Shown in pieces: positions 41,474 through 47,326 of a stretch of 64,000 bases of DNA. The DNA lies in contig BAAIJX010000021.1 in the NCBI GenBank assembly GCA_054600435.1, positions 62,001 to 126,000 of the forward strand. The letters run 5' to 3'. The DNA comes from Neophaeotheca triangularis. Lineage: Eukaryota. The position numbers and the translations under genes were made by a program. The notes below the pieces were generated by a model that made no database searches, was not told the DNA's origin, and worked only from the letters and a program-made list of their open reading frames with translations. The number at the start of each line of letters is the position of its first letter. The stretch's first letter is position 1.

Positions 41474-42391
41474 ATGAACCCCCCGAGATACAGAAACTTG
41501 CTTGAGCTGGCGACCAGGCGAACGCAATGGAGGTGCTCAACATGTACGCGCAAAACCACGCCAACGCCGTCCTTTCAGAGTTGGCAGCCCGCCAGGCGCC
41601 TGCAGACGACATCGAAGCCAGGACAGTCCAGTGCATCCATGGCGCATGAGCAATTGAGGAAGCCCTCTAGCATCAAGAACCAGAACACGATGTAGGTTGG
41701 AAGGGACTACTTTGCAGGACCATCCCCGCCCACCTACTAACATACTCAAAAGGTACTACGTCCTCTCCATCATCCTTGGCACCGTCGCTCTCTCTTACGG
41801 CTCAGTCCCCTTGTACAAGACAATATGTCAGCAAACCGGCTGGGGAGGGCAACCGATCAAATCCGCCGCACACGCCTCTCCAGACGGTGAGGACGACGTC
41901 GCAGCCAAATTGACGCCCGTAACCAGCTCACGGCGATTAAGGATCACCTTCGCAGGCTCTACCTCGGACGTCTTGCCCTGGAAATTCTCGCCCCAGCAGC
42001 GAGAAGTACGAGTGCTGCCCGGCGAGACCGCTTTGGCGTTCTACACTGCCACCAACAAGAGCAAGGAGGAGGACATCATCGGCGTGGCAACATACAGTGT
42101 GACACCTGCGCAGGTCGCGCCGTACTTTAGCAAGATACAATGTTTCTGTTTCGAAGAGCAGAGGCTGAACAAGGGCGAGACGGTCGACATGCCCGTCTTC
42201 TTCTACATCGACCCGGAGTTTTTGAAGGACCCGAATATGAAGGGGATTGACACCATCACTCTGAACTACACGTTCTTTAGTACGTCTCGACCAGCACAAC
42301 AGCATATTGCCCCTTTCAGCTACTGACAAGTACAACAGAAGCAAAGTATGATAAGAACGGTCATCTGTCTCCCATGCCAGTCTCACGATAG
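41474..42391 (+). CDS. COX11: Cytochrome c oxidase copper chaperone
   Basis: Presequence, TM YGSVPLYKTICQQTGWGG, KIQCFCFEEQ motif; introns 41692..41752 and 42280..42338. Confidence 0.96.
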
Positions 42392-43456
42392 TCTGGGCAT
42401 TTATGCCAAATGACATTGCATCTGACCCCCTCTCACCCTGGCTGATCCAATAGCACTGCCGGGCTTTGCAGGATGGTTTTCTGAACATTCAGTCTCGGTC
42501 GCACCAAGCTGTGCACAAAGTTCCGAAATTGGACGTTGTCTTTTCACACTTTGAAAGGGAAACATCTTGACTTTGAGACGAGGGTGGACTGGTCGAGTCC
42601 TGGAGAAGTCGAGCCGGGAGCGGATCCAAACACGTTCGAGGTCAGAGTGCTACCTTCCGATCATCGGACCCGTTTTGGGGAAAATGACCACTGGAGCAAA
42701 CAGTGGCACGCCAACCTTCTCGAGCAGGCTAATGCGCAGGCGGAGAGCCCCAGAGATAAAGCGCCTCGATGCTGTAGTAACATCCTTGTACATTTACAGA
42801 CCATGTCGCCGAAGGCGCCCCCAATTTCTGAGCGGCAGCCAGGAGCACGGCCGGAGATATCAATGCGGCGAGTAGCTAGCTAGCTAGCTCTTGAAGAACT
42901 CTAAGCAGTGCATACAGTATGTGGAAGACGACTTCCCGTTTCCAGATCGCAAACACCTTGAAAACCCCCCCATCTTGACCAGTAAGACGCCGCTCAAAGC
43001 GCGACTCGCTGCATAAATTCCCGATTCAATCACATGGTGCTTCCAAGAGGCAAAAAGGCCACGGGCCTAAAGACCCTCCTCCATTCCCACGTTCCTCCAC
43101 CAAGGCTTCTCGCCTGACATATTCTGACCCTCCTCATCACCACCAGTAGTATCCGGCCGGTTAACCACACTTTCCACATCCCCCACCATTCGCCTAGCGC
43201 TGATTTCTCTCGCGCCCTCATCTCCCCCTTTTAGCCTCATACCCCTCCTCATCATGGTAAGCGCCGGATAACGCTCCGTTTGCTGCCGACTCTGACCAGG
43301 CCGCGTCAATCCCTGAGATGAAGGCGAGTTGGCCGTCGCGCCGCTGCCGCCGCCGACGCCCGCGTCCGGGTAACGGGAATCGTGAAATAGGTGCGTTGGG
43401 ATCTGGCGGCGTTGCGTCGCGGCTGCGAGCCATTCATCTCTCATGACTGGTCGTTG

Positions 43457-45162
43457 TCATTGCAGCGGTTCAGAGGACGAGGACAGTCGATTGAGGTGGA
43501 GGTAGACGTCCGTGCCGTAGCTGTGTGGTTTGCTGTGTCAGTCTTTGCTATTCTCGCAGCTCAGTGCGGGACTTTGCGTTTCTTACCCTTCCATGCTAAT
43601 CAGTTTCAGATCACCGCCGAAGTATCTGGCGTAGAGTCTTGAGATGGGTAGACCGTAGCCAAACCCAGCCATTGGCGCTTTGAAGTCGCTCTTGTTGAAG
43701 TCCGGGTCCAGGTTCGGTGTCTGATCGACCGTCGTGTACATGTACGTCCAAACAAGAGGAATGGCACTTCTCCTAATGCCACCCCCCTCATCGCTGACTT
43801 TGATGGTAATATCCTCTTTGCCCTCGCTGACAATAACTTGCGTAACGGGGAAATCTTCCTTGTCCTGTCCGTGTGTCTCGACAACAGCTCGCAGCGAATT
43901 CTTGAGCGTCTCGAAAAGCATGTGTGACAAATGTCCGGGCACGTACATGAAGTTGAGATCCGGGGGGCAGACAAGGCGGACTTTGGGAGCGTCGAACAAG
44001 CCATAGTGGTCCTCGCAAACGAAGCGTGCATTCTCAATCGCCTCCTGAGCTAGATCACGCACGTTGGTTTTGGTACAGATGATTCCCACGTAGTTTGGGT
44101 CCGAATGCGTTCTCTGGTCCGTCAGAGCAATGTGTTGGCCTATAAGCATACGAATGCCAATTCGGGACATGTAAAATCTGTCGAGAAATTGCTGTATATT
44201 GTGGTCGATTTGCAGGCGCTGTCGTTTCCGCTTGTACTCCAGAATACCCTGCGCTACCGTGGTGACAACGCTGTCGTGCCTCCGTTTGATCCTTTCCAAA
44301 GTGTTCTTGAATCGAATGTTGTAGTCGTTGAGCTCCGGCGGCCAGTTGTTCCCATCGTCTGCAGCGCTGAAGTATCGACGGAGATTGGTACCCTTTTTCT
44401 CAGGGCCGCCATTGCCGTTGCCATTCCCATTCTCTTTGCCCGGAGGCTGTGATCTATACTGGCCTTTGGCGACACTAGGGTTATTCGACGTCTCGCTCAG
44501 TATCCTCGATGTCTTTCCGTTGGTTCTAGCGGGCTTCATCAAGCGCTCCTTGACCTCTTCGGACAGAGTCGGCTTCGACAGTTCCGTGATTTCCTGGCGT
44601 GATGCGTGTGAGTTACTCAGATGCGATTGGCAATAGGATAGTGATCACCACCCACCTGAAACGACTGAGCGTACCAATCCTTGACCCTATTGATGCTGGG
44701 CATCTCGTTCAAGCCATCGGGGAGATCGTCCAACTCTTCAACGCGGTGTGCGAGTCGTATGGGCAGTTCCTCGCTGAGAAACTGTGATGCGCGGAACAGG
44801 GTGCCAGTGGACTGCGAGCTATGGGGTTAACGAGGGACTTGGGGGACGCTGTTGCCGAAGGAAACCATACAGGGTTGCTCCCAACTGCTGGCAGGTGATT
44901 AGCGATCACACTCGCATGCTCAAGTAGAACACACACAGAGGGCTACTTACACTGCACCATCTGCCTCAAGCTCACACCAGTCGCCTGGCTTGGGGTCAGT
45001 CATGGCCAGGATGCGCCGTGGGGGTCGAATCAGGTACGCACTGGGAACTTGCTGTAATGCGATATCTGATTCATGAGCTCAGCGCTCCTCTTCCCTGCGA
45101 CAGGGTCAGCACAGCCTTCTCATTGCAGTTGTCTTTTTGCGCCGGTACTACTCACACGACAT
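43457..45162 (-). CDS. Mitochondrial pyruvate dehydrogenase kinase (PDK/Pkp family)
   Basis: Seven exons (45156..45162, 45042..45094, 44951..44984, 44871..44884, 44656..44811, 43587..44593, 43457..43520) give MSWKRS...ELPIRLAHRV...ETLKNSLRA, VSDEGGG, MAGFGYGLPISRLYARYFGG, ending SSEPLQ. Confidence 0.95.
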
Positions 45163-46020: not shown

Positions 46021-46895
46021 CTACGAGTTCTTGACAACGCCGACCTTGGCAGCCTGGTGGTTTTAAGATTAGCAATAGTTCATTTCACAGTCGCAAGTCA
46101 TCTACTCACCCTCAATATCCTCCCGTTCAGCGAGAATCCCTTCTGCTGCGTGTGGAAAACGGTCCCATCCTCCTTGTCCGGCTGCGGTACCTGGAAAGTG
46201 GCCTCGTGCTTGTTGGGGTCGAATCGGTCGCCCGCTTCGCTAGGGTCGAACCTCTCCATGCCGTGCTTGGCCAGCGTCTGCATCAGAATCTTCTCCGTCA
46301 TGGTAAGACCGCTGTGCAAGCTCATCAATTCCTTGTTCTCCTCCGTCAGCTTCTCCTGAGGCACTGTGCCGAGCGCGCGGTCGAGGTTGTCGATCGAGTC
46401 GATGAGGTCTTTGGCAAACTTTTGGAGAGCAAAGTCCTTTGCGGCTTGCACCTCGCGCTTGGTTTGGTGTTGCAGGTTGGCGAAGTCGGCTACGGAGCGT
46501 TTTAATCGGTCCTGGGGCAATTGGTATTAGCTACCTCCGTCATTCGTCAAAGGCGCCTGCGCGTCTGCTTCAGTGGCATAGTGGCATACCGTGAGGTCAA
46601 TGACTTCGGCATTCTTCTTCTCAAGCTTCTTTGCATCTTCTGATACGGCAGCCTCCTCTTTAGCTTCGCCCCCTTTTGTCCCGGCGCTTTCACCCTCCTT
46701 TGCGGCTTCTTCCTGTTTTGCGCCGGCGTCGGAGTACCATCGTCGACCTTGCACAGCTGATCGTGCTCCCGCTGATACTACTCGGGAGGTCTTCGAATAT
46801 GCGCCAGCGAAGCCTCTGCTGTTCCGCAGGCACTGTTGTGTCGGCTGAGATGATGCGAAGCTCTGCAGAGCGCGGGCGAATTGCGGTTGGACCAT
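46021..46895 (-). CDS. MGE1: Mitochondrial GrpE nucleotide exchange factor
   Basis: Presequence; RSVADFANLQ, FAKDLIDSIDNLDRAL, FDPNKHEA, GRILR|AAKVGV; introns 46512..46589 and 46054..46109. Confidence 0.96.
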
Positions 46896-47326
46896 TTTGT
46901 TGTACGTAGGATTTAATTTAGAGGTTCTGATGGTGGTCGTGAAACGGGAAGATGTATAAGATGGAGACTCGCAATGGTTTTGGTGTACACAGAGGCAAAG
47001 GGCGTGACTTGAGGTCTGCCAAAAAGTTCAAAGATGACGGAGGAGACTCGGAGCTCGGTTTCGGACTGACTGCTCGCGTGCTCTTTGCCACCTCGAAGCC
47101 ACTCAACTACAAGTACATACATACATATACATGATCAAATATACGATTTCAAGGAAGACCGTCGCCATCCATGGACTTATTATCCATGGTACTTGTACAA
47201 TTACAATGCTTTTCTAAACTAATCACTATGGGTATCTCATACAAAGCAGATGCACACATCATCTGTAGAAAATCAGTCTTGCGACTCTACACAACACCTC
47301 CCATGACGCCCGCCACCAGATGGTGA

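Follow-up and report, generated by a model that had tools for sequence, protein, structure and literature searches.

A probably leaky stop codon ends a pyruvate dehydrogenase kinase gene

We analysed a stretch of 64,000 nucleotides of Neophaeotheca triangularis DNA (contig BAAIJX010000021.1, positions 62,001 to 126,000; referred to as the window), in which a minus-strand gene for a pyruvate dehydrogenase kinase (PDK) ends at a TGA codon followed by a long open frame, here called the tail. On the minus strand the end of the gene reads GAA CCG CTG CAA TGA CAA CGA CCA GTC ATG, with the TGA at 43459-43457. The initial annotation of this DNA had described 129 in-frame sense codons after the TGA, and these were borne out, as they run over 43456-43070 to a TAG at 43069-43067 with the translation that it quoted. 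The features of this region are the following:

43457..45162, minus strand: PDK coding sequence, 7 exons (45162-45156, 45094-45042, 44984-44951, 44884-44871, 44811-44656, 44593-43587, 43520-43457), 444 aa
43451..43462, minus strand: leaky stop context CAA-TGA-CAACGA (CAR-stop-CARNBA), as judged from orthologue counts
43070..43456, minus strand: in-frame tail of 129 codons, mostly disordered, which would give a readthrough product of 574 aa
43229..43240, minus strand: tail motif M-x-L-K, residues 73-76
43172..43210, minus strand: tail core R-E-[VI]-S-x-R-R-Q-V-G-D-A-E, residues 83-95
43070..43105, minus strand: terminal aromatic/acidic motif P-W-W-x-N-V-x-M-E-E-G, residues 118-129
43067..43069, minus strand: second stop, TAG

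Every PDK intron has GT-AG borders and five of the exon joints are present in RNA contigs; with the splice joints supported in this way, the kinase frame does end at this TGA. The hexamer after it fits CARNBA, the readthrough consensus of yeast. Within the window, CAR-stop-CARNBA is found at 3 of 4164 stop triplets, and only at PDK is it followed by a long frame. The open frame, taken from the window sequence alone, is weak evidence and only modestly unusual: base composition by itself gives a 0.7% chance of 129 open codons, and 103 of the 4158 stop-to-stop intervals in the window (2.5%) are equally long. This last count is what would favour a chance frame in a GC-rich 3' untranslated region, an explanation of negligible probability that is refuted by conservation, considering the 242 homologous peptides (representatives at 50% clustering) and the selection on frame and codons described below.

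Conservation of the stop context and of the tail frame in fungal loci

We scanned metagenome contigs for related loci and analysed the best 80 of 258 confirmed PDK loci. The kinase stop is covered in 76 of these, with 4 ending before it, and the second stop in 70, with 6 lacking one. Context and stem were counted over 41 non-redundant loci, with locus L012 set aside, and codon statistics over 39 rows, with L012, L053 and L068 excluded. In a quick tree, in which many forks stay open, the loci group with Dothideomycetes, with a Leotiomycete-like clade and with Lecanoromycete-like rows.

Results showed that a CAR codon precedes the stop in 41/41 loci, and that the hexamer after it is CARNBA in 38/41 and CARYYA in 21/41. 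The stop itself is TGA in 17, TAG in 14 and TAA in 10; it switches among the three across the Dothideomycete-, Leotiomycete- and Lecanoromycete-like clades and is never a sense codon. The initial annotation had looked to conservation of TGA-CAA-NNA; the part after the stop is kept, while the TGA is not. Alignment of the orthologue 3' ends also revealed the codon-like purifying selection on the tail that it had named as a check: the core has a ratio of nonsynonymous to synonymous change (pN/pS) of 0.14 in the kinase frame against 1.44 and 1.54 in the other two, by pairwise counts with synonymous sites near saturation and without tree correction. Stops fall within the core in 0, 14 and 25 of the 39 rows in the kinase frame and the other two frames, respectively. 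Of the 71 sequences, the window among them, that have a second stop, 67 carry the core motif in the kinase frame (38 of 42 non-redundant). When it was located with a frame-blind nucleotide profile, it was in frame in 39/39 rows, at 25 distinct distances that are all multiples of 3.

We also asked how the tail is joined to the kinase in the 242 homologues. None of the 147 examined carries the kinase in the same frame, and therefore the stop has been kept in evolution. Two natural controls were found. The Dissoconium-like locus L012 is without context, stem and tail, all lost together, and the PDK-family paralogues L086 (G000:C10) and L087 (G000:C4) end in TGA-TGA and TGA-TAG, the opposite of a leaky context. 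Taken together, programmed readthrough giving a C-terminally extended PDK, as first proposed, is strongly supported by the conserved leaky context and by the in-frame tail under purifying selection. It is very probably the best explanation overall and a real, conserved candidate; that readthrough itself occurs seems, from the sequence comparisons, highly likely, and the extended isoform is probably produced in a way that could be regulated.

Short conserved motifs in a disordered tail

Tail lengths range from 53 to 141 aa across loci. Besides the core, the M-x-L-K motif (pN/pS 0.22) uses its Leu codons freely, which indicates conservation at the protein level, and the terminal motif has a pN/pS of 0.42; the Leotiomycete-like clade has G-F-F..G-E-V in place of the terminal P-W-W motif. 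AlphaFold2 on the tail alone gave only short helices, with a pLDDT (predicted local distance difference test) of 60 and a pTM (predicted template modelling score) of 0.18. For a readthrough orthologue the mean pLDDT was 52, with the tail below 50, and this model was not used. A Pfam search of 38 tails returned no shared family, an ESM Atlas search with the tail no usable match, and a PDB profile search with the last exon plus tail only a nickel-binding protein at E 0.15, with no PDK at E up to 10. The initial annotation had stated that the extension does not end in a peroxisomal targeting signal type 1 (PTS1), and indeed a PTS1-like end is present in 0/41 tails.

The start of the core, R-E-[VI]-[ST] (residues 83-86, 43199-43210), fits the pattern R-x-x-S, the phosphorylation-site consensus of basophilic kinases.

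RNA contigs retain the stop

Three spliced RNA contigs of the window PDK, from three runs and two samples, cross the stop unedited and with no other letter, and two more lie on the distal tail; 43247-43365 is uncovered, a gap that carries no weight as evidence. Full-length intron-free contigs of relatives number 13, and 10 of them include the stop and the complete tail and go on for another 166-329 nt.

These contigs bear on two ways in which the frame could be opened at the RNA level. The first is alternative splicing around the stop, the arrangement annotated for 11 tail-containing PDKs (473-587 aa), and a YAG is indeed found 8 nt past the stop in 28/41 loci. However, each annotated protein has a junction of its own (Aureobasidium alone has three), most junctions delete the last kinase strand, the YAG is missing in 13/41 and would result in a frame shift in the window, and the stop is retained in the RNA contigs, so that we regard splicing as most improbable. 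The annotated junctions read as a gene-finder artefact and, at the same time, as an independent sign of the coding potential of the tail; at least 12 database models invent introns around the PDK stop. The second is adenosine-to-inosine stop-loss editing in the sexual stage, which is described as widespread in Sordariomycetes, where it gives kinases tails (PMC13123824). Editing targets UAG, whereas here TAG is used in only 14/41 loci and TAA, which would need two edits, in 10/41. Neither does editing explain the CARNBA context, and no A-to-G change is present at the stop in the three contigs, although contigs drop rare variants and may not come from the sexual stage. Editing is thus highly unlikely.

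A long-range stem starts 9 nt after the stop

Two blocks of the tail are fixed at synonymous sites (Val is GTC in 37/37, Gly is GGA in 35/37 and Leu is TTG in 31/35), in contrast to the core, in which Val and Gly use all codons. The two blocks are complementary and pair over a long range, 43447-43433 with 43322-43305. In the following, NC and C denote the non-canonical and canonical helices of a kink-turn (k-turn):

43448..43456, minus strand: spacer of 9 nt between stop and stem, the same in every locus that has the stem
43433..43447, minus strand: 5' arm with NC helix GUCA (43447-44), U (3n), GA (2n,1n; 43442-41) and C helix (43440-33); contains the in-frame ATG
43323..43432, minus strand: unconserved loop of 110 nt (5-151 nt among loci with the stem)
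43305..43322, minus strand: 3' arm with C helix (43322-15), purine bulge AGG (43314-12), GA (1b,2b; 43311-10), U (3b) and NC helix UGAC (43308-05)

A compatible stem partner is present in 36/41 loci, while 300 shuffles gave 0.66 on average and never more than 3. In an alignment of the two arms (A2, with L005 in place of L004 and without L036 and L055), 91.1% of cells are paired, a level reached by 0/500 shuffles and by none of the slid controls (28-57%). By helix, pairing is 100% for NC and 85.4% for C, and the first C pair is G-C in 39/39. Two-sided changes affect 8 of the 12 pairs; at the second C-helix pair, G-C becomes A-U in six rows from at least three separate clades, as read by eye from A2. 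RNAalifold recovers both helices unprompted, and in the window the inner helix has pair probabilities of 0.92-0.98. The stem would probably stimulate readthrough.

A different stem had been proposed at first, 43414-43423 with 43349-43359. It can be drawn, but its pair probability is 0.00 at all 10 pairs and it sits in the unconserved loop; it is not the conserved structure, which is the pairing described above. Rfam over 42800-43700 gave no fitting family; its three matches, at E 3-8, fell well short of the gathering score. Pattern searches for a second copy in the genome gave 2 and 5 other matches; none was found among the five places fetched, which are not at tail-bearing gene ends and reach no more than 8.4 bits against the RNA model.

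The internal loop has the layout of a kink-turn

The stem's helices are set apart by a 3x6 internal loop, with U-G-A in the 5' arm opposite a three-purine bulge, G-A and U in the 3' arm. In a standard k-turn, as described in PMC8191799 and PMC5689011, a bulge of 3 nt precedes tandem G.A and A.G pairs, and this layout is present in 35/41 loci, with the bulge AAG in 15, AGG in 11 and GAG in 9. The pair -1b:-1n is C:G in 39/39. Position 3b:3n is U.U in 29 loci, with two-strand changes to C.C (2) and G-C (1); U.U at this position in Kt-7 is reported to give moderate ion-induced folding (PMC5689011). On balance, the conservation of the layout leans towards folding as a k-turn.

In locus L060 (L060:4118-4220) the tandem G.A pairs are replaced by Watson-Crick pairs while stem and bulge are kept, which makes it a natural test case for the k-turn.

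We also considered that readthrough is real but that the tail is a degron, a stalling peptide or a shield from nonsense-mediated decay that sets the kinase dose, with the stem an ordinary bulged helix and no k-turn. The disorder of the tail (pLDDT 60, pTM 0.18) would suit a degron, fungal stop-loss tails are described as often destabilising (PMC13123824), and L060 keeps the tail after its G.A pairs have become Watson-Crick. On the contrary, exact conservation of residues alongside saturated synonymous sites over three classes exceeds the needs of a generic degron, and the non-paired GA/GA with the purine bulge is kept in 35/41 loci. We hold this reading possible but doubtful. As to the tail itself, a binding arm appears as probable as a degron or stalling peptide.

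The position of the stem also bears on initiation after the stop. The initial annotation had offered reinitiation at the ATG 12 nt downstream as an alternative to readthrough, and the tail could then be a small protein of its own, started there or at the later Met of M-x-L-K. An ATG is indeed found at codon 5 in 34/41 loci with a purine at -3 in 40/41, all loci without it have a later in-frame Met before the core, and gene callers list the tail as separate open reading frames. Nevertheless, the first ATG is missing in 7/41 loci that keep the frame open and the tail in it, and its letters are explained by the RNA element, as they occupy positions 4n, 3n and 2n in the stem and vary in step with the facing strand (U.U 29, C.C 2, G-C 1). 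Moreover, at 25 different distances the tail stays in frame with the kinase, needless for a separate reading frame, and the leaky-stop context would be left unexplained. Separate initiation is thus very unlikely, and the initial suggestion is not upheld.

A possible mechanism of regulated readthrough

In the mechanism that we propose for programmed readthrough, most ribosomes would terminate at the TGA, yielding the 444-aa kinase, while a fraction would insert a near-cognate amino acid and continue for 129 codons to give the 574-aa isoform. Two cis signals would favour this leak, the CAR-stop-CARNBA context and the stem starting 9 nt downstream. The start of the stem would coincide with the end of the mRNA entry channel of the terminating ribosome, at the position given for it in PMC13517186, and its two arms would be spaced by a loop whose length is free. 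The conserved internal loop would most likely fold as a k-turn and may bind a protein of the L7Ae family, making the leak tunable. The disordered tail with its three short conserved motifs would most likely dock on the kinase or on a partner, changing activity or location.

K-turns are described as binding sites for L7Ae-family proteins (PMC4316175, PMC4382518), which offers a speculative route to regulating readthrough; binding of such a protein to this element is a tentative suggestion. Going further, the long-range k-turn at the ribosome entry channel might be a protein-gated switch (by an L7Ae-family protein such as eL30 or Snu13, possibly toggling with a slipped register) that sets the dose of tail-bearing PDK, a possibility that we put forward with reserve.

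Several observations weigh against this picture. On the side of RNA, no contig from N. triangularis spans both stops, the contigs do not tell the strand and they come from one study. As for the stem, trimming A2 to the predicted arms, without the stem-less L004 and L055, inflates the pair counts, and kinship was left uncorrected; the outer helix is nearly invariant, with one two-sided change. L004, L006 and L055 keep hexamer and tail with the stem degraded or absent, so some lineages can do without the stem. Concerning the k-turn, there is a slipped register, 43449-45 with 43311-07, in which 93.3% of cells pair, versus 100%; it wins by energy in 17/39 loci against 22 for the k-turn register, under an energy model without a k-turn term. 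The slipped register would bury the GA of the bulged strand, and the two registers could form a two-state switch. With regard to the tail, L068 has an in-frame TAA 20 codons into it, directly after the 3' arm (L068:1097-1163), with the later motifs intact, which may be a recent loss, a sequencing error or a double readthrough, and the tail of L053 diverges after the second block. Finally, sampling was limited to the best 80 of 258 matches, and more distant classes lie outside the sample.

Comparison with known recoding signals and RNA elements

The stop context resembles the type I signal (UAG-CAR-YYA of the tobacco mosaic virus replicase), which according to PMC13517186 works with all three stops and is said to need no downstream structure. 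Like type I, PDK has CAA before the stop, CAR-Y-Y-A after it in 21/41 loci, and uses all three stops. Unlike type I, a conserved stem follows the stop in 36/41, the window hexamer CAACGA fits CARNBA and not CARYYA, and the gene is a cellular metabolic one, not viral. As type I is said to need no structure, the combination of hexamer and stem in PDK is unusual.

Extended 3' stem-loop elements of alphaviruses, furoviruses and Drosophila kelch are described with UGA-CGG/CUA-type contexts and stems of 10-14 bp with a 1-nt bulge (PMC3159437). The PDK element shares with them the paired peaks of synonymous-site conservation, a spacer of 8-12 nt (9 nt in PDK) and a long unconserved loop. It differs in having a type-I context and no UGA-CGG/CUA, and a 3x6 internal loop with tandem G.A.

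The internal loop itself is like Kt-7, U4, box C/D and yeast L30e mRNA k-turns in its 3-nt bulge followed by tandem G.A/A.G and in its C:G at -1b:-1n (as described in PMC8191799, PMC5689011, PMC4382518 and PMC4316175), and like box C/D k-turns 3b:3n is mostly U.U. Unlike known k-turns, it is part of a reading frame that would be translated, directly downstream of a stop codon, and its arms can be separated by as much as 151 nt.

The selenocysteine insertion sequence (SECIS) also has tandem G.A pairs, for which a k-turn has been suggested (PMC2761289), so that both systems tie stop recoding to such an RNA. Here, however, the stop is TAG or TAA in 24/41 loci and not a fixed UGA, and the element lies 9 nt from the stop. 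Neither tRNA-Sec nor SelD was found in the N. triangularis genome, whose assembly may be incomplete. Insertion of selenocysteine is excluded by the stop variation and the missing machinery.

Among C-terminal extensions, metazoan PDKs have a regulatory cross-tail. The tail is like it in that it begins where the fungal enzyme stops, and in a pairwise alignment the match to human PDK2 continues for 15 residues beyond the stop. In contrast, the cross-tail is constitutive in animals, no counterpart of the conserved tail motifs is evident in it, and the likeness in sequence is weak, in line with the PDB profile search of last exon and tail. Peroxisomal PTS1 readthrough and Sordariomycete stop-loss editing (DBF2) likewise give an extension past a conserved fungal stop. 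PDK differs in its lack of a PTS1 end, in its conserved tail motifs, in not being restricted to UAG and in that no editing was seen in the three contigs.

In the literature searched, as far as its accessible text goes, there was no report of the PDK case under PDK, fungal, Neurospora or Pezizomycotina readthrough, k-turns with readthrough, or fungal stem-loops, though supplements could hold one (PMC12790415), nor was a type-I hexamer found combined with a spaced stem like that of alphaviruses and a loop resembling a k-turn. A 2026 review of readthrough structures in animal viruses, in its accessible part, makes no mention of a kink or k-turn. If true, readthrough of PDK would add a deeply conserved non-peroxisomal gene to those read through in fungi and reveal a hidden isoform of the kinase closest to the human PDKs, missed or mangled by annotation. 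It would also open to experiment the question whether ordinary, non-selenocysteine readthrough can be under the control of a trans-acting RNA-binding protein. The protein-gated k-turn switch, if it exists, would be a selenium-free counterpart of SECIS-style recoding in at least three fungal classes, acting on a kinase of central carbon metabolism.

Identity of the kinase and neighbouring genes

With an orthologue as query, the closest solved structures are human PDK1-4 (E 1e-75 to 1e-82), with BCKDK at 1e-54, and the two other family members in the genome are about 30% identical. Based on these values, the window kinase is probably of the PkpC/STK-48 type (table in PMC3591445). In Aspergillus nidulans, the GFP (green fluorescent protein)-tagged probable orthologue PkpC is reported as cytosolic in glucose, and its deletion as leaving pyruvate dehydrogenase (PDH) activity unchanged (PMC6027865). 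This implies that the target need not be PDH, and tuning of PDH control by the extended isoform, as suggested in the initial annotation, is a conjecture. If true, readthrough would also allow a test of why this orthologue of human PDK behaved oddly in A. nidulans (PMC6027865), where a tag at the annotated stop would remove the tail, if that species has one.

The N-terminus of the window kinase, MSWK (45162-45100), shows no obvious long mitochondrial presequence, in agreement with the weak targeting prediction described for A. nidulans PkpC (PMC6027865).

NCBI has a protein under the name Neophaeotheca triangularis that matches the large PDK exon with 100% identity. Upstream on the same strand lies 46098-47027, which from its sequence we take to be a GrpE/Mge1-like gene, and downstream on the opposite strand 41658-42326, presumably a COX11-like gene. 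Among 33 loci with long flanks, the COX11 exon is found in none and the Mge1 exon upstream in 6. The NCBI model of the window PDK ends one exon early, with the last exon omitted. It also picks another acceptor at the 14-nt micro-exon 44871-44884, which is backed by RNA.

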